Shown here: positions 55,688 through 64,000 of the stretch, piece by piece
Layout of the letters: the number at the start of each line of letters is the position of its first letter
Numbering within the stretch: the first letter of the stretch is position 1
Assembly: GCA_963674945.2 (NCBI GenBank)
Contig: CAXXWQ010000004.1
Coordinates: 1,440,001 to 1,504,000, forward strand
Length of the DNA stretch: 64,000 bases
DNA from: an uncultured Desulfosarcina sp.
GTDB lineage: Bacteria > Desulfobacterota > Desulfobacteria > Desulfobacterales > Desulfosarcinaceae
Direction: 5' to 3'
Translations under genes and position numbers: made by a program
Notes under the pieces: model-generated
What the model saw: only the letters and a program-made list of their open reading frames with translations
Told to the model about the DNA's origin: nothing
Database searches by the model: none

Positions 55688-57397
55688 ATGGACAGAAAAT
55701 CGATCATCACCGCGGCACGGGGCGATACCCCGGCGGACCTTTTGCTGGTCAACGCCAACATCGTCAATGTATTTTCCGGGCGGGTGAACCAGGGAAGCAT
55801 CGCCATAAAGGATGGCCATATCCTGGGATTCGGCGAATACGAGGCTGATACGGTCCTGGATCTTGGAGGCCGGTTTGTGGCGCCCGGCTTCATCGACGCC
55901 CACGTGCACATCGAAAGTGCCATGACCATCGTGGCCGAATTCGCAAGGGCCGTGGCGCCCTTGGGGACCACCACCGTGGTGGCCGACCCCCATGAAATCG
56001 CCAATGTGATGGGAACGGCGGGCATCGAATACATGCTCCGATCCGCCGAAAACCAGCCCATGGAGTGCCTCTTCACCCTTCCCTCCTGCGTTCCGGCAAC
56101 CAGCATGGAGACCGCCGGCGCCCGGCTGGAAGCCGAGGATCTGGCCCCCTTTCTCTCCCATCCGCGCATCGTGGCCCTGGCGGAAATGATGAACTACCCC
56201 GGCGTTATCTTCACCGATCCGTCGGTGATGGCCAAGCTGGAAATGGCCCGTTCCCACAAAGTGCCCATGAACGGCCACGCACCGGGCGTTTCCGGTCGTA
56301 AGCTGGCCGCCTACGCCGCCGCCGGCATCGCCTCGGACCACGAATGCACCCGGGCCGACGAGGCTTTGGAAAAGCTCTCTTTGGGCATGCGCATCATGGT
56401 CCGAGAAGGCACCTGTGAACGAAACCTGGATGCCCTGTTTCCCATCATCGATGCCGGTACCTGGCCTCGAATGATGTGGTGCACCGACGACCGCCACCCC
56501 CACGATATTCTCACCCATGGTCACATGGACGCGGTGATCCGAAAGGCTGTGGCAAAGGGATTGGATCCCGTCACGGCCATCCGCATGGGAACCATCAATC
56601 CGGCCGACTATTTCGGTCTTGGGGATGTGGGAGCCGTCGCACCGGGCCGCAAGGCCAATCTGGTGGTCTTCGCCGATCTTTTTGACATTCGCGTCCAAAA
56701 GGTCTTTTTCATGGGGAAACTGGTGGCCGAAGATGGAATGATGCGGCCCGACATCCACCGCCCATCCCCGGTCTCGGTGCCGTCCGCCATGAATCTGGAT
56801 CTCGAAAGACTGGATTTTTCCATTCCCGCGGCAGGCCAGCGGATGCGGGTGATCCGGGCCATCGCCGACCAGGTGGTCACCGGCTGCGACATCATGGATG
56901 TGAAAAAACACGACGGCGAAGTTGTGGCCGATATCGACCGTGACCTGGCAAAGCTGGCCGTGGTGGACCGTTATTCGGGGATGGCTGGTACCGGGAAGGG
57001 ATTCGTGACCGGTTTGGGATTGAAACGCGGCGCCATCGCCTCCACCGTGGCCCACGACTCCCACAACGTCATCGTGGCCGGTATCACGGATGACGACATG
57101 AAAGCCGCCGTGGCAGCCCTGGTCGGGATGGGAGGCGGTCTGGCGGCAGCCCTGAATGGCAATGCGATGCAACGGCTCCCCCTTCCCGTTGCCGGGCTCA
57201 TGTCCGACCAGCCGGTGGAGACGGTGAAAGAGCAGATGGACCGGATGATCGACGCCGCCAGATCCCTGGGAAGCCCCCTGTCCGATCCCTTCATGACCTT
57301 AAGCTTTCTGGCCCTTCCCGTCATCCCGGCGCTGAAACTCACCGACCGGGGCCTTGTTGACGTGAACCGGTTCGAAATCGTGGATCTGTTCGTTTGA
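55688..57397 (+). CDS. ade: Adenine deaminase
   Basis: PGFIDAHVHIES, ADPHEIANV, AEMMNYPG, DHEC, CTDD and AHDSHN. Confidence 0.96.
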   Translation: MDRKSIITAARGDTPADLLLVNANIVNVFSGRVNQGSIAIKDGHILGFGEYEADTVLDLGGRFVAPGFIDAHVHIESAMTIVAEFARAVAPLGTTTVVADPHEIANVMGTAGIEYMLRSAENQPMECLFTLPSCVPATSMETAGARLEAEDLAPFLSHPRIVALAEMMNYPGVIFTDPSVMAKLEMARSHKVPMNGHAPGVSGRKLAAYAAAGIASDHECTRADEALEKLSLGMRIMVREGTCERNLDALFPIIDAGTWPRMMWCTDDRHPHDILTHGHMDAVIRKAVAKGLDPVTAIRMGTINPADYFGLGDVGAVAPGRKANLVVFADLFDIRVQKVFFMGKLVAEDGMMRPDIHRPSPVSVPSAMNLDLERLDFSIPAAGQRMRVIRAIADQVVTGCDIMDVKKHDGEVVADIDRDLAKLAVVDRYSGMAGTGKGFVTGLGLKRGAIASTVAHDSHNVIVAGITDDDMKAAVAALVGMGGGLAAALNGNAMQRLPLPVAGLMSDQPVETVKEQMDRMIDAARSLGSPLSDPFMTLSFLALPVIPALKLTDRGLVDVNRFEIVDLFV

Positions 57398-57518
57398 TTG
57401 CATATACCGCCGCAAGCAAAGTCAGTTCCCACCGATCCGCCTGGACCCTGTCCTGAAAATCTTCCGAAGGATCGTCACGATCCCTATACCAATATGCTGC
57501 GCCGTTTTTTGTCTCACG

Positions 57519-59189
57519 GTAGAGTAGGGAGGGATTACCCTCCCCCTCGTCAAACCGGACAGGCGGATTTCCCGCATCCGGCTTTCCCTTGAACTTCACC
57601 AACAAGCACACGCAGAGCATCAGCTAATGTCGCTACTACAGATATATCAGCCCCAGCTGTTTCAGGTGCCGGTAATAGCTTCTCCCTTTCGGAGGACGAA
57701 AAGGACGCTGACTGCGACGACGTAAATGACCGATAAAGCGATGCAGAACATACCAGTTCATTTCCCGAAACGCCTTGCGAGGATAGCCGAATTGAAAGTA
57801 GTTGGCCCATCCGCGCTGTTGGCGATTCACCGCCTCGATCAGCTGCGTCACAGGAACACAACTGTGTTTGCGGCTAATCGTTTCTCGAAGCCTGTCCCGA
57901 TGCGCCTGCATCGCCTTGCGCGATGGCGTTACGTTCAGATAGAAGACCTTCTCGAACCAATGAAGGTAAATATTCGCCAAAAGCGGCGATATCACACCGC
58001 CTTGAGGCGTACCCTTCCCTTTCCGCGAGACTTTCTTGCCGCCGTGGCCATCATCCTCCTCGATCGGTGCCGACAGCCACATCTGAATCAGCTTCAACAC
58101 CGAGCGGTCGACGATCCGCATGCGAACACACTTCATCAGCTTGTCCTGCGGAATCGCGTCAAAGTAACCTTTCAGGTCGGCATCAAGCACCGACGTCAAT
58201 CCCTGTTTTCGGTTCGATGATCAGCAGCGCGGCCGTCTGGATGACACGGTCCCGTATCGTCGGGATGCCCAAAGGGCGCTGACGTCCGTCGGGTTTGGGT
58301 ATATATACCCGCCGTACTGCCATGGGGCGGTACTGCTTGCGCCTGAGGTCTTCATGGATTTCTTCCACGAAACCCTCAGACCCGCCCTCACTGGCTTCAA
58401 TCTGTTCGAATGTAACGCCGTCCACACCGCCCTTGCCTCCGTTGGCTTTGGCGATCCGGTAGGCGCTGGTCAATACGTCTCGCCGATAAATCCGATCATA
58501 GAGTGCATAAAATCGGAACTTCGGCTCCTGCTTCGCTTTCAGGTAGAGCTTCTGTCTCAAAGAAGAGAGTTTCTCCGGAAGCCGGATCGTCTTTACGTGG
58601 GCGGACTTCCACACGTCCACGTCAATAGACTCCCACAGTTCCAGTTGTTCCGTAATGGGTCTGTTAACCAAGCGGCACTCCTCTTGTCTGACTCTGCATG
58701 TTCAAGGCAAGGCCCCTTGGCTCCACGGGCATTACCCCGCTTCTCGGCTACTATGGGCCTCTCCGACTCCCGACATGGCCGTTTGCCGGTTATTGATTCC
58801 CCACAAACGTTGGTGACACGATCGCCGCCGTGCCGGGTCTCCCAGGTTCCTCGATGCGACTGTCCAAGCGCGCCCTCCCCTATCACCCCGGGGTGCCCTG
58901 CGGCTTCTCTCGCTCGTTGCTTCACCGCAGGTGGCAGGCTTCGCCATCTTTGGCAGGTTGGCCACACCCAATTGCGTAACGAGGCCGAAGCGGGTTCATT
59001 TTCATTAGGGCTCACTTGTTCGCAGTCCGGGAAGGCTATTCCCTTCGCCACCCGCCATAGGGCGGTGACCGATCCGCTTCCCATGCTCGGTTACCCTGAC
59101 ATGGGGGACCGCTGCTACACGATGAACGAGCAATTATCATGGCTGACTCCTTTCAGTCGGCAAGTCACACCAGGCTTATCCTGGCGCTC
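57519..59189 (-). mobile_element. Group II intron (1671 nt as present)
   Basis: 5' end GAGCG; domain V AGCCGGATGCGGGAAATCCGCCTGTCCGGTT; short domain VI ending CCTACTCTAC; EBS1 CAAAGA in a GCC/GGC hairpin. Confidence 0.92.
57636..58671 (-). pseudogene. ltrA: Group II intron reverse transcriptase/maturase with two internal deletions
   Basis: [52 protein letters not shown] and maturase RGWANYF are present; SYGFRP and YADD segments are missing; frameshift near 58208. Confidence 0.9.
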
Positions 59190-59339
59190 CAAAGACGCTA
59201 AGCCGCTAAGAGTAAAAGATTTAAAACACCCAATCAAAACTTTCGTAAAACCTGAGTTCACCGCTGCCACTTACGATTCTTTTCTTATCGTCGTTCGTTG
59301 CGCCTTCGCGGCTTCGCGCCTTTGCGTGAGACATTGCTT

Positions 59340-62300
59340 TTATTCGCGCCCCGATGTTCCGGCCATGACGGACTTTCCCACCTCCCTGCCGATAACGGTG
59401 TCAAATGCCAACCGCACCGGATCGGGAAAGGGCGTGGCCACAGGCCGGTTCTGACCGTCCCGCGTCACCCAGACGGCCCGGTGAAAGCCGTAGGCGATCT
59501 TCACCGACGATCCGTCCGGTTCCAGGCGGAAGTAATCCACGTGAAAGGTGACGCTGCAACTTCTCAGCTCCTTGACGGCCAGGGTGAGCTTGATCCGATC
59601 GAAGGGCATGGCCTCGCGCAGGTGGTCCACGCGGCTCTCCAGGGCCAGCAGCTCTCCCTTCTCACCGATTCCGCCGAAGTAGTCGGGAATCAGATCGTAG
59701 AAGAATCGGTCCCGGATCTGCCCCTGCCAGTCGTAGTAATTGGCATAGTAGATATTGCCCACCAGGTTGGCGTGGGCCAGGGTGGTGTCGAAGACCTGTT
59801 CCCTCACGATGGCGCGAATCACCGGTCCCGGGGGGGCCAGATAGAGGATGGGATCATCGTCCGATTCAAGCAGGTGTGCCATGGATTCCTCCATGGGCGC
59901 GGGGATATCGGGCGCATCGAAACGCGGGCACATGTCCTCGATGAAATGCCCGTAGTAGGTTGGATAAGGGGCGACCCTGGCCTTTCCCGGACCCAGTATC
60001 TCCACCCAGGTGGTCTGAAGACGGCAAAAGGCGAGACGTTTGCGGCCACCATCCTTTCCCATTTTTCGAAAATCATAGGAAAGCGTCATGGTGGAATTCT
60101 CGGGCCCGCTGTTGTCACTCACCCACATGAGAATTTCCACCTGGTCGCTGGTGGCACCCTCCCCTACTATCTTCAGGTGGCCATAGTTGGTCACCCCGCC
60201 CCATCGGCCGCTGGCGAACTGATCCGACATCTGGGCCAGGACCGGCCAGGCAGAGGCTTCCCGGGTGTTACCCATCCATTTGATGAAGTTGGAAAAGTAG
60301 ATGGTCCGGCTCAAATTGGCGCTGGGCTGGAAGGTGACCGGCAGCCGCTGGACGAACACCAGCTGCCCCTGGGGTCCACCCTCGATCATCTCGAAGGGGC
60401 GGACCTCGTACAAGGGTTCGTATCCCGGATAGTCGGCGGTCAAAAGGTGCGCCGGCACCCGGGGCGCCGCCTTCTCGGCGGTCGTGGTAGTAACGGCCAG
60501 AATCTGCGGCCTGCCCCAGGTCAGACGAATGGCCAGGGTGAGAATCTGTAGGGCGGAACCTTCGGCGTCGGTGACTTCAAAAAGAACGGCCGTCCCTTTT
60601 TTTTTCACGATCCGAAGGGTATCTGAAGAGACGACACCGATCTTGCCCAAGGTTTCGGTGGCGGCCCAGACGCGGGTACCGGCGGTATCCAGATCTTCTA
60701 TGGATTCGGCGAGTTCATCCAGAAGCCGGGCCCGATCCGGTCCCAGCAGACCTATCCACGCGTCTTTCTCCCTCGAGGTAATAGCGGCCAGGTCACACCC
60801 CATTGGACCGGGACCGACCGAACAGAGACAGGTCCGGTCCTCATGGGTCAACGACAGGTCCAGCACGCCACCGGCGATATTGGCGACGGCCGGTTTACCC
60901 GTCTCTTCCCAGTGGACGGCCAATGAAGCGGATGGGACATCGTACTTGTCGGCGGCCTCCTGCAGCGCCTTTTCCAGCAGGGGCATCTCGAGATCCCGTC
61001 GCCGGTCCCTGGTCTGGTCGTGAATTCCCACGATGGTGGCCAGATCCACGAAAGGTGTTGTCACGGCAAGATCGTTTCCGGCCGCATCCAGCGCCTGCCG
61101 AACCATCTGCCGGTCCCGCTCCTCTGGTCGGATCAGATCGGCCACCGTCGGGTAGTGATCGTGGTGCTTGAGAATTCGAAGACGATAGCCGGAGAGTTCG
61201 GCCCGGATCGATCCGTCCTCACCAACTGCCGTCACTTTGTAAATCAGGTCCCGGTCATCCTGCTCCATCAGTTCAACGCGCACGTTTGCCGATTTACCGC
61301 CGTCGAAGAATTCGGGGAAAAGATCCATGCAATCGATGGATACGGGAAGGCTGGTATCCTGGGGTACCAAGAGGGCCGCGCTCTGCAGCATCGTATCGGT
61401 GAAGAAGGGATCACCCAGGCACAACCGGACCGAAGGGTGTTTCCCGAAGGCCTGGCCCACCAGTCGATCCTTTGGAGTCAGGCGGCTGGTGAGCAGTGCC
61501 GTTCCGGTCCGTTCACCGGATTGTTGGATTTGCCAGACCCTTTCGATGCCCTGGAACCGGGGACCTTGGAACAAGAGCGTGGGACGGTACAGATCCGTCT
61601 CGGGGACCAGCGGCAAGGGTTCATCGGGCAGTTCCATGACGGCTGCCGGCGCCGTTTCCCCTGCCTCGAAGGCAAAGGAGGCGGAGAAAAAGTCGGAAGC
61701 AACACCGGTATCCTGCTTGACGATACCGGCGTGAATCGTGGTCCGCCCATCGCCATCTGCCTCGGATATGATGGCATGGATGGTGATGTCGGCTCCCGAT
61801 TCGGCATCCACGGTGATGGGCCGGAGAAGACGAATATCCCGGATCTGCATCCGCACCGGCTTCTTTTGTTCGGTAAGGTAAAACACCGCTTCGGCCATGG
61901 CCTCCAGGCCGAATACCGTCGGGAAGAGATATGACCCTTGAAAATGGTGATCCTTGAGATAAAGATCGCTTTCGAGGGATAGATGGGCGGAAAAAACCGC
62001 CTCCACCCCCGGCGTCAGATGAATAAGCCGTTCCAGAAACCGCCAAGCCCGGGGCGGGTCGGGAATTGTCTGGCGCCACGTGTCCAGTCCCCCCAGACGG
62101 GCGGTCACCACCACCTGGCGATGGCCCGGGTCGTGGGTGAAGAGTCTAAGAAATCGGTCCACACCCATATCGGTGGGAATGGCGTCGATGCCCCTGTCCC
62201 GAAGCAGGGCCACGCTTCCCATGCGTGCCCCCATCCCTTCGTCCCGCCAGATGCTGTAGGCGACATTGAGGATCTGGGTTTGGGGATGGACGGCATGAAA

Positions 62301-64000
62301 CCCTCGCAGGAGGATGTCCATTACCTCGTTGGAAAAGCCGTACCAACCGTTTCCGGGCATGCCGGTGAGGCCGATGATGGATCCGAGCCCCACGATGAGC
62401 TTTGGCGGGTTCCCGTGAAGCGGATCGAGCAGGTGAAGCAATCCCAGCACCTTGGGGGCGGTTTCTGCAAATGCCTGTTCGGGAACGACCTGTCCGGTCA
62501 ATCGTGGCCGGTTGAGGCCGGCACCGTGGATAATCCCGGTCACCGTTCCAAACTTTTCGGTGACCTGGCGCAGCATATTTTCGACCTGGCTTCGATTTGT
62601 CACATCACAGGAAAAGTAGGCTGCCGTCAGGCCGAGATCCACATACTGGTCTAAAACATCGCGGATCTCTCGACTGGCCGGTTCGTCCGGCGCCTCTTCG
62701 GGAAAAGAGGTCCTCCCCACCAATGCCATGGTCACACCGGTATGGCGCGCCACGGCCAGGGCGCAGGCGGCCGTGATCCCCTTGGCGCCGCCGGTAACGA
62801 GGATGACGTCCTTTCCTGTCCAACGAATATCGCGCACTTTTGCATCCGCAGGCTGTACGAGATGGGGAATGGGGATTCGGCGGGTCTGGTCCAGATCGTA
62901 TCCCACGGCGGCGTAACTCTCCTGGGTGAAGATTTCGGCCAGGGTCTCCCAGGCGATGATCTCTGGCGACAGGGCGGAACTGAAATCCACGACACGAACC
63001 CGAAGGTCCCCCCGTTCCAGATGAAGACTCGCTCCCAGCGCCATGGTTGCGCATCGATCCGCTGTCGCGAATCGTGGGTTCCGCCCGAAAAAACCGCCAC
63101 CGAATTGAATCCAGGCGATGGTGGTGGTCCTTCTGGGAGCTTCGGCCGCCGGCGGCACGCGGGTCAACAGCGACCGCATACGGATCATCCGGTCCAACAT
63201 TGCCGACGGATCCGCGCCTCCGAGGTCGTTTTTGGGCAAGATGGTCACCAAATGAGAAAAGGCCGGATCCTGAACCAAGGCGTCAACATCTTCATGATCC
63301 ATGGCGCACCGCTTGGTAAAAGCGCCGCGATGGAATAAATTAACGTCCAGGGCTTCGGCCACATCCGCCGCGTCTTCGCTGAAGAGAATCAGGAACCGCG
63401 CCTTTTGCAGATCATTCTCCGAGCGCATCCGCCAGTTTTCGGGAAACAGTGGATAGGGTGTCTCCACCATTTCCATGGCGAAGTTGCGCACCCAGGTGGT
63501 ATGGTCATCGGGAACGACCGGCGGTCGCGTCTCTTCGACGCCGGCGACGGCTTCCTGCTGCTGGGCCGCCATCCGGTTCAAGATGGTGCCGATCTCCCGC
63601 AAACTGCATGTGCGCAAAGGCTCGATGTCCAGGTGAGCGGACAGTCCCAAGGCCGTGGCGGTGCTCACCACCAGGTCCTGGAGCTTGTCCGGCCCCAGGT
63701 GAAGATCTTTTTCCACCAAAAGGTCCGGATCTAGGGTGTCCATGGGAAAACCGGTGATTCGGGCGGCCTGGACGCGCAACTCGGTCATCGCATCCAAAGG
63801 GGGGGCCACCTGGATTTCGGGTTCCATGGCCATGGCAATTTGATCCACGACCTGGGCCAGGCTTGCGTTGGCAAGCCCCGGGACCTCCAACCGATCGGAC
63901 ACACCGGTCTTGTTGGCCAACCACACGATCAGGTCTCCGGCCTTGATGGAATCCAGGTTCAGATCATCCAGGAGGCGAAAGGACAATTCGATGCTTTCGG
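59340..64000 (-). CDS. Enediyne-PKS-like iterative type I PKS, 3' part: ACP-ACP*-KR-DH-PPTase-TE-TE (runs off the window)
   Basis: Frame open to the window edge; LLDDLNLDSI (ACP); LVTGGAKGIT...WYGFSN (KR); DHHFQGSYLFP (DH); MGCD...RVWAATETLGK (PPTase-like); two hot-dog TE motifs. Confidence 0.88.
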   Translation of the reverse strand, partial: ESIELSFRLLDDLNLDSIKAGDLIVWLANKTGVSDRLEVPGLANASLAQVVDQIAMAMEPEIQVAPPLDAMTELRVQAARITGFPMDTLDPDLLVEKDLHLGPDKLQDLVVSTATALGLSAHLDIEPLRTCSLREIGTILNRMAAQQQEAVAGVEETRPPVVPDDHTTWVRNFAMEMVETPYPLFPENWRMRSENDLQKARFLILFSEDAADVAEALDVNLFHRGAFTKRCAMDHEDVDALVQDPAFSHLVTILPKNDLGGADPSAMLDRMIRMRSLLTRVPPAAEAPRRTTTIAWIQFGGGFFGRNPRFATADRCATMALGASLHLERGDLRVRVVDFSSALSPEIIAWETLAEIFTQESYAAVGYDLDQTRRIPIPHLVQPADAKVRDIRWTGKDVILVTGGAKGITAACALAVARHTGVTMALVGRTSFPEEAPDEPASREIRDVLDQYVDLGLTAAYFSCDVTNRSQVENMLRQVTEKFGTVTGIIHGAGLNRPRLTGQVVPEQAFAETAPKVLGLLHLLDPLHGNPPKLIVGLGSIIGLTGMPGNGWYGFSNEVMDILLRGFHAVHPQTQILNVAYSIWRDEGMGARMGSVALLRDRGIDAIPTDMGVDRFLRLFTHDPGHRQVVVTARLGGLDTWRQTIPDPPRAWRFLERLIHLTPGVEAVFSAHLSLESDLYLKDHHFQGSYLFPTVFGLEAMAEAVFYLTEQKKPVRMQIRDIRLLRPITVDAESGADITIHAIISEADGDGRTTIHAGIVKQDTGVASDFFSASFAFEAGETAPAAVMELPDEPLPLVPETDLYRPTLLFQGPRFQGIERVWQIQQSGERTGTALLTSRLTPKDRLVGQAFGKHPSVRLCLGDPFFTDTMLQSAALLVPQDTSLPVSIDCMDLFPEFFDGGKSANVRVELMEQDDRDLIYKVTAVGEDGSIRAELSGYRLRILKHHDHYPTVADLIRPEERDRQMVRQALDAAGNDLAVTTPFVDLATIVGIHDQTRDRRRDLEMPLLEKALQEAADKYDVPSASLAVHWEETGKPAVANIAGGVLDLSLTHEDRTCLCSVGPGPMGCDLAAITSREKDAWIGLLGPDRARLLDELAESIEDLDTAGTRVWAATETLGKIGVVSSDTLRIVKKKGTAVLFEVTDAEGSALQILTLAIRLTWGRPQILAVTTTTAEKAAPRVPAHLLTADYPGYEPLYEVRPFEMIEGGPQGQLVFVQRLPVTFQPSANLSRTIYFSNFIKWMGNTREASAWPVLAQMSDQFASGRWGGVTNYGHLKIVGEGATSDQVEILMWVSDNSGPENSTMTLSYDFRKMGKDGGRKRLAFCRLQTTWVEILGPGKARVAPYPTYYGHFIEDMCPRFDAPDIPAPMEESMAHLLESDDDPILYLAPPGPVIRAIVREQVFDTTLAHANLVGNIYYANYYDWQGQIRDRFFYDLIPDYFGGIGEKGELLALESRVDHLREAMPFDRIKLTLAVKELRSCSVTFHVDYFRLEPDGSSVKIAYGFHRAVWVTRDGQNRPVATPFPDPVRLAFDTVIGREVGKSVMAGTSGRE

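Follow-up and report, generated by a model that had tools for sequence, protein, structure and literature searches.

A class F-like group II intron without endonuclease inside an arm of a periodic intergenic repeat, and evidence that its lineage likely homes to such repeats by base pairing

We found that positions 57519–59189 (minus strand) of the window, by which we mean the whole analyzed stretch of 64,000 nucleotides from an uncultured Desulfosarcina sp., hold a group II intron of 1671 nt that interrupts an arm in a pair of inverted repeats having an 8-bp period. We consider it highly probable that this is a broken, endonuclease-less and class F-like intron lying exactly within a single arm of a periodic repeat between genes, and that it belongs to a lineage likely to home there by base pairing between RNA and DNA, with the repeat family likely serving as a mostly harmless landing pad. 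Such homing would be a variant of a known hiding strategy of introns, and is well supported by covariation between guide loops and exons. The window alone cannot show this strategy because it holds a single dead copy in a low-copy repeat, and is but a dead example of the pattern found for the lineage.

The intron copy of the window

Deletion of the intron rebuilt an arm identical in 27 of 30 positions to that at 59304–59333, thus reproducing what the initial annotation of this DNA had reported, and the two arms, 93 nt apart, were the top inverted repeat of positions 57300–59500. An empty copy of the repeat was found in the congener G032 (locus L298), where the 3′ flank seen here follows upon the same arm, and because arm and flank are joined directly in that copy, the insertion of the intron must have been precise and without target duplication. 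This confirmed the proposed placement in a single arm of the palindrome, for which the coordinates were also right. An empty orthologous site was not found among 13 congeneric loci examined. In 12 of these 13 loci the genes for adenine deaminase and the polyketide-synthase-like protein nearly abut without any repeat (the 13th held unrelated DNA), so that repeat block and intron were both added between the convergent genes in a lineage-specific manner. Since an empty copy exists in G032, the repeat would have come first and the intron second; a repeat block may have arrived between the two genes, with the intron following and its ORF then decaying. The features of the locus are given in Table 1.

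Table 1. Features of the intron, its target repeat and the neighboring genes, in positions of the window.
Feature	Positions	Strand	Support
Adenine deaminase gene, left neighbor, converging on the insertion	55688..57397	+	Pfam Adenine_deam_C, Amidohydro_1
Remnant similar to the 3′ tail of a gene that congeners carry elsewhere, in lineage-specific intergenic block	57401..57485	-	75–76% matches in G032 and G033
3′ exon part of occupied arm; IBS3 is the C at 57518	57510..57518	-	Empty copy L298 has this flank
Class F-like group II intron of 1671 nt, present once, with deletions in the RT	57519..59189	-	
Domains V and VI; AGC triad, 5-nt DV loop	57519..57586	-	Rfam RF00029; fold
C-terminal ORF piece, RT3-4 fused to maturase X, no endonuclease domain	57636..58199	-	Pfam RVT_1, GIIM
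N-terminal ORF piece, RT0-2, ended by 89-nt deletion	58183..58671	-	
Position of EBS3; reads A here, a mismatch to the C of IBS3	58883	-	Column pairs with exon +1 (Watson–Crick) in 20/22 introns
alpha′, terminal loop of a stem-loop, 7-nt complement to alpha at 59125-59131	58912..58918	-	Consensus fold of 59 introns
EBS1, CAAAGA	58947..58952	-	Covariation with exon -1 to -5; unpaired in consensus fold
EBS2, UUACGC; ACGC pairs with exon -10 to -7	58974..58979	-	
5′ exon part of occupied arm, with IBS1 and IBS2, 8-bp period	59190..59210	-	
Spacer between the arms, 93 nt	59211..59303	.	Rebuilt empty element folds as single long hairpin
Free inverted arm, an empty potential site in opposite orientation	59304..59333	+	
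Polyketide-synthase-like gene (KR, DH, thioesterase-like); predicted transcript enters repeat and intron	59340..63986	-	

With regard to the origin of the repeat block, both G032:C2 and G033:C11 have a gene whose 3′ tail the remnant next to the intron resembles, and G032:C2 (148 kb) also carries the empty repeat and 8 of the 13 arm matches of G032. Because of the tail match, the empty repeat and the clustering of arm matches, the block may derive from a replicon similar to G032:C2. No sigma-70-like promoter was found in 57300–59500, and no RNA run contained more than 0.07 of the words. It was also seen that the word of EBS1, CAAAG, occurs on the transcribed strand of the free arm at a distance of 93 nt upstream from IBS1, and in a transcript that reads through, the splice site of the intron would be predicted to be hidden.

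Domains V and VI were recognized by the Rfam Intron_gpII model at 50.3 bits (cut-off 40), with AC as the intron's 3′ end, whereas the 5′ end at 59189 was placed by alignment with relatives beginning at the same base. The start GAGCG, which differs from the consensus GUGYG and is common to many relatives (the copy of G034, 93% identical, begins GUGCG), was considered as a mark of decay and rejected. Using as reference the intact 2012-nt intron of G035 (locus L004, 84% identical, ORF at 519–1892), we found an 89-nt deletion at 58208/58209 that shifts the RT frame and a 252-nt deletion at 57942/57943 that removes the YADD region. The latter was rejected as an assembly artefact, since one contig spans the junction without difference in two runs of a single sample, possibly the source sample. 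The intron is single-copy in the 7.08-Mb assembly and has no intact sibling there, other RT matches being distant fragments at one locus only. Judged from its sequence, this copy is dead, with an RT that lacks 89 plus 252 nt including YADD. Among its relatives, the intact protein P0013 scored 379 bits on TIGR04416 (cut-off 300), and those of 458 aa contained PF00078 and PF08388 only, without any endonuclease domain.

Some further observations were made with regard to related elements. The runs X1–X3, in which the sequence of the window is found, contain in addition an intact related intron at about tenfold its depth. In G034 the intron (L301, G034:C1:2143091-2146202) carries a 3.1-kb insert inside its RT gene, placed at the YFD motif, and the insert has a 681-aa ORF that by eye is large serine recombinase-like. 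Another region of the genome of the window (L001, G000:C3:2185000-2198000) contains pieces of RT genes from two or more other group II introns, along with genes that by eye are IS91-like.

Regarding its class, the ribozyme without the ORF amounts to about 635 nt, which lies within the 450–700 nt of class F, and both EBS1 and EBS2 are present. The 5-nt DV loop and an alpha′ at the tip of a stem-loop were also found, both being common to IIE and IIF; the available part of Nagy et al. (PMC3753933) gives these two, together with EBS2, as marks of IIE/IIF. In a tree of IEPs with references other than classes E and C, the 40 rows of the lineage formed one clade (SH-aLRT 99) with deeper forks unresolved, and the nearest named reference was Ni.ha.I1 (g3, class F) at 46% identity, compared with 36% for g2, 33–36% for g1 and 30% for class D. 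The intron appears class F-like by these RNA features, with an RT-X protein lacking endonuclease, and would likely belong to class F variety g5, which in the accessible parts of PMC3552965 and PMC4244168 is defined around Ge.ur.I1, So.us.I2 and Pe.th.I2. Identity with class C (IIC) was rejected on the basis of a covarying EBS2, a longer EBS1, insertion inside the arm, an AGC triad and a full-length DV.

Target sites and guide loops of the lineage

The relatives were surveyed using a pattern made of letters from the intron 5′ end only, with no exon letters, which found at least 117 loci in 31 of 64 parts of a genome collection and at least 121 loci in 11 of 64 parts of a metagenome collection. 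Including seven earlier loci there were at least 246 matches, many of them 5′ fragments ended by contig ends; at least 230 had 40 nt or more of exon and a G start, representing at least 204 distinct sites. The IBS1 pentamer was found to recur 8–10 nt upstream, with at most one mismatch, in 136 of the 204 distinct sites listed, compared with 7.9% among the 14,683 remaining G positions of these flanks and with a shuffle mean of 13.8 (maximum 24), although the shuffles overstate significance because the sites are related by descent. In the spectrum of periods for the sites listed, 8, 9 and 10 stood out as maxima and echoes appeared at 16 and 18, and an exon scaffold was evident, with G at -1 in 99% and T at -4 in 84% of these sites and with TG or CG beginning the 3′ exon in 23 of the 26 sites where both intron ends were found. 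Furthermore, the four bases before an upstream G-Y-G copied IBS1 in 113 of 139 sites listed; this copying lies outside the main EBS2 duplex, and 49.7 cases (maximum 67) were expected upon swapping of upstream units among sites. The grammar of the repeats is a pyrimidine-rich pentamer ending in G, followed by YG, with a period of 8–10, and periodic sites carried nine phylum labels among the named records listed.

Most of the intron copies were thus found in the same kind of repeat as that of the window and not in unrelated sequence. The initial annotation had suggested that the lineage homes into a multicopy family of 8-bp-periodic palindromes, which holds at the level of the lineage and for multicopy repeats but was overstated for this particular genome; moreover, the repeats targeted form a superfamily that has many words and periods of 8, 9 or 10 nt, and some sub-lineages use other REP-like hairpins. 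Among the 68 of the 204 listed sites that failed the periodicity test, 26 were REP-type-like, presumably being other REP-type arms, while 18 were degenerate or of another period and 24 unclassified. Hairpin-type targets clustered in sub-clades of their own in a domain I tree. Scanning a viral collection gave five matches, one being a true intron, and the best 30 matches listed from a plasmid collection included no member with more than 48% identity. A test of open frames as a sign of intergenic position gave 92 versus 105 of 122; the site of the window is intergenic, and we infer the same for the other sites.

In the same survey, loci L045, L055, L078 and L189 had 655–768 nt with both ends, little or no ORF and positions in repeats, and could be non-autonomous forms. 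Six loci (L066, L152, L232, L207, L239 and L264) had the 5′ end GUAGCG, one base longer than usual. At L017 (G013:C2, around 5560800) a different intron, with 35% IEP identity, was found directly behind a hairpin repeat of the GTCATTCCGG type, a class C-like placement in a REP-like palindrome.

For analysis of the guide loops, 111 of the 204 sites had at least 330 nt of intron, 95 of these were aligned over the EBS region and 86 gave both EBS by anchors (nine being dropped), with 82 of them distinct. EBS1 paired 5/5 with exon positions -1 to -5 in 63 of the 82, compared with 10.7 (maximum 22) upon exon shuffling, and 28 different EBS1 words occurred among the 82 introns; here too, as in all the shuffles of guide loops, kinship inflates the contrast. 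The earlier claims that CAAAGA of the window complements the last six exon bases and pairs 5/6 with the free arm were both borne out, the former with all six pairs; the two ORF deletions, the location of EBS2 and the EBS3 mismatch had gone unnoticed in the initial annotation. In the consensus fold, based upon 59 introns, EBS1 was unpaired and EBS2 lay in an unpaired bulge, and the EBS3 column was taken to be intron nt 307, which was Watson–Crick complementary to exon +1 in 20 of 22 introns. The longest Watson–Crick duplex of EBS2 had a mean of 3.54 versus 2.81 (maximum 3.07), and its words followed those of the exon, ACAC occurring with GTG in 33 cases and with GCG in none, and ACGC with GCG in 13 and with GTG in four. 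Covariation with exon -1 to -5, the upstream G-Y-G and exon +1 therefore shows that EBS2, EBS1 and EBS3 together span one repeat unit. The 82 natural combinations of EBS1, EBS2 and exon offer an immediately usable list of specificities for an En-minus intron of compact size.

The guide loops have also been retuned repeatedly. At least 24 EBS1 changes were needed among 35 IEPs with 17 words, as counted on the protein tree because the domain I tree includes the EBS columns, and in the domain I tree the seven-row sub-clade with the copy of the window had six EBS1 words. A few EBS substitutions could be enough to shift an intron between repeat words, and after transfer the intron could adopt the repeat variant of its new host. 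Integration would, by analogy with En-minus introns generally, occur by reverse splicing into single-stranded DNA at replication forks with priming from the nascent strand, and copies in repeats would persist because such sites are many and intergenic.

The same distribution could in principle arise through survivor bias only, whereby introns insert at any match of 11–12 bases, genic insertions are purged and those in repeats are left, with no specialization involved. Repeats do dominate the matching words in some hosts, such as G065 (63 of 87), and six of the nine exact sites in the genome of the window are non-periodic; purging of genic insertions also probably contributes under our preferred explanation. 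However, survivor bias fails to explain why retuned EBS sequences should match repeat variants across at least 24 changes and nine phylum labels, or why the sites share a scaffold from -4 T and -1 G to YG at +1/+2. Sister introns of g3-like type moreover had periodic exons in zero of five cases, mostly in different hosts (nine loci from 401 + 301 genomes and six plasmid loci, 5′ ends being placed in 5 of the 16 loci tried). We therefore regard survivor bias on its own as unlikely.

That the intron or its protein instead recognizes a two-arm hairpin, in the manner of class C, seems very improbable. The rebuilt element of the window does fold as a long hairpin (-62.7 kcal/mol as RNA), 45 of 179 sites listed had a partner arm on their upstream side (two mismatches allowed in 12), which is above the controls of 15 and 5, and five of the eight copies in G065 had an exact partner within about 100 nt. 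The remaining 134 of the 179 listed sites had no close upstream partner at that threshold, however, and one of the G065 copies (L281) had none within 150 nt upstream; furthermore, EBS2 is present and covaries, the DV is of full length with an AGC triad, and the hairpin stem would bury both IBS1 and IBS2. Because of the covariation of EBS and IBS, the few upstream partners and the burial of the IBS sequences, the site is likely recognized through ordinary base pairing to a single arm. The proposal that the palindrome as such is the target was accordingly abandoned, as it is apparently not read.

Copy number of the repeats and their association with GxxExxY genes

In the genome of the window we found six sites within seven mismatches of the 30-mer, 10 sites within one mismatch of the 19-mer and 23 sites when a less strict periodic pattern was used. 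Nine empty sites, three of them periodic, matched the 11-nt recognition word exactly, and the pattern given in the initial annotation had two empty exact sites and one occupied. The repeat is hence multicopy and not a single palindrome, though its family is small here. The word of the window occurred 13, 7, 3, 0 and 0 times in five congeners, and G035 had no matches to either of the two patterns tried.

In G065, all eight intron copies were located in the repeat of that genome, for which there were 63 exact empty 14-mers and none with reversed controls (another reversed-pattern control gave 51 matches, but is itself similar to the repeat and therefore no independent control). Across five hosts chosen for their different targets, the empty copies of the own target numbered 63, 18, 42, 120 and 192, and in the cross-host counts 13 of 20 cells were 0 or 1, with the remainder at 7–75. 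The target of the intron in G066 had 18 copies versus 75 for the commonest variant tested, and that in G067 had 42 versus 44 and 50 for other variants. From these own and cross-host counts it follows that the intron matches a variant present in its host, though not always the commonest one.

The periodic words were also found close to genes for GxxExxY (TIGR04256) nucleases. Using the 16 longest of 20 matches, from five other genomes, we found periodic words within 130 nt of 13 of the 16 genes, compared with 4 of 29 control windows. One of these genes (L328) was flanked letter for letter by the site of the intron of that genome (L066), and another (L329) by the very word of the window. A GxxExxY gene was present in 6/6 genomes tested, the single one in the genome of the window being wrapped in a 10-bp variant, while most arms, including those of the window, enclose no gene. 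As a separate observation, periodic arms of several words cluster around the GxxExxY gene of this genome at about 366000–441000 of G000:C2, in a region that also includes a duplicated block of a few hundred bases. The openly accessible literature gave no description of GxxExxY arms, and the available text of bioRxiv 2021.01.26.428298 merely names the family.

It is conceivable, although we think it improbable, that this class F lineage, found across nine phyla or more, lives as a specialized parasite on the periodic arms of GxxExxY cassettes, in turn representing an uncharacterized selfish system, in which case the protein would fix the scaffold, the EBS loops would be retuned for each host and nuclease cuts would replace the endonuclease domain. 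We know of no activity of a GxxExxY nuclease on such arms. The still more limited notion of a hijack, with nicks or unwinding by the nuclease at the arms supplying a single strand or a primer to the En-minus intron, would fit the flanking of nuclease genes by intron targets and the presence of the gene in every genome tested, but is highly unlikely, as no nuclease activity on arms was found in the literature searched, sub-lineages use other repeats and priming at replication forks suffices for other En-minus introns according to the accessible part of PMC4424553. The intron also provides an independent marker for a single unit and strand within the GxxExxY-linked arms.

Comparison with known systems

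Introns that hide in mobile DNA are well known, with RmInt1 being one example. Those described in the available parts of PMC7306698, where hiding in mobile elements is a further target strategy, as well as Ni.ha.I1 in a transposase gene (PMC3552965, Table S2), share with the present lineage the EBS/IBS homing and the use of a multicopy element, but here the host is a short non-coding repeat and specificity has been retuned repeatedly among variants of one grammar; 'repeat' and 'palindrom' do not occur in the accessible text of PMC7306698. Class C introns at terminators and attC sites, as far as presented in the parts available of PMC4424553, PMC7923331 and PMC12584367, are likewise En-minus with many harmless intergenic sites per genome, but read a hairpin plus an EBS1 of 3–4 bp without EBS2, whereas this lineage uses an EBS1 of 5–6 bp with a covarying EBS2 and inserts inside the arm.

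Comparison can also be made with elements other than introns. REP-targeting IS elements (PMC1525189, in part; ISPpu9) similarly use short intergenic palindromes as safe sites, but they are DNA transposases or recombinases acting at REP hairpins, while here a retroelement uses arrays of periodic words. The REP/REPIN-RAYT systems, as seen in the sources available, likewise have short arms paired in inverted orientation on both sides of a spacer, intergenic and multicopy, with a linked small nuclease-type gene; in our case, however, the arms are tandem words of 8–10 nt, the linked gene is GxxExxY (TIGR04256) and the arms are absent in congeners. No GTAG or CGTC head, as in REP/REPIN, was visible in the arms of the window. 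The target types of bacterial group II introns given in the accessible parts of reviews are single homing sites, terminators and attC (PMC4424553; also PMC12584367 and PMC7923331), and within the literature covered, which did not extend to subscription papers such as Simon et al. 2008, we found no description of introns homing into these periodic repeats. The pattern found here would fall between the known strategies, as base-pair homing at a dispersed repeat superfamily, with many retunings and throughout a lineage.

The closest likeness is with class F variety g5 (Ge.ur.I1, So.us.I2, Pe.th.I2 and c-Ku.st.I1; PMC3753933, PMC3552965 and PMC4244168, each as available in part), here compared by description and not by sequence, which shares an RT-X protein without endonuclease, a size of about 2 kb, a DV loop of 5 nt, an alpha′ located terminally on a stem-loop, both EBS1 and EBS2, and non-coding sites. 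In the exon of Ge.ur.I1-1, IBS1 is found again 9 and 19 nt upstream, each time followed by UGU, with splicing at these copies in vitro, according to the accessible text of PMC3753933. This is the same periodic grammar as that of the targets of the present lineage, but as far as that text goes the copies were treated as alternative splice sites and not as a dispersed repeat family, with no lineage-wide target preference described, and the words 'repeat', 'tandem' and 'intergenic' are absent from its main text. The periodic grammar would thereby explain the odd alternative splice sites of Ge.ur.I1-1, and class F introns, which in the available parts of the cited papers were studied in vitro only, would gain a target ecology.
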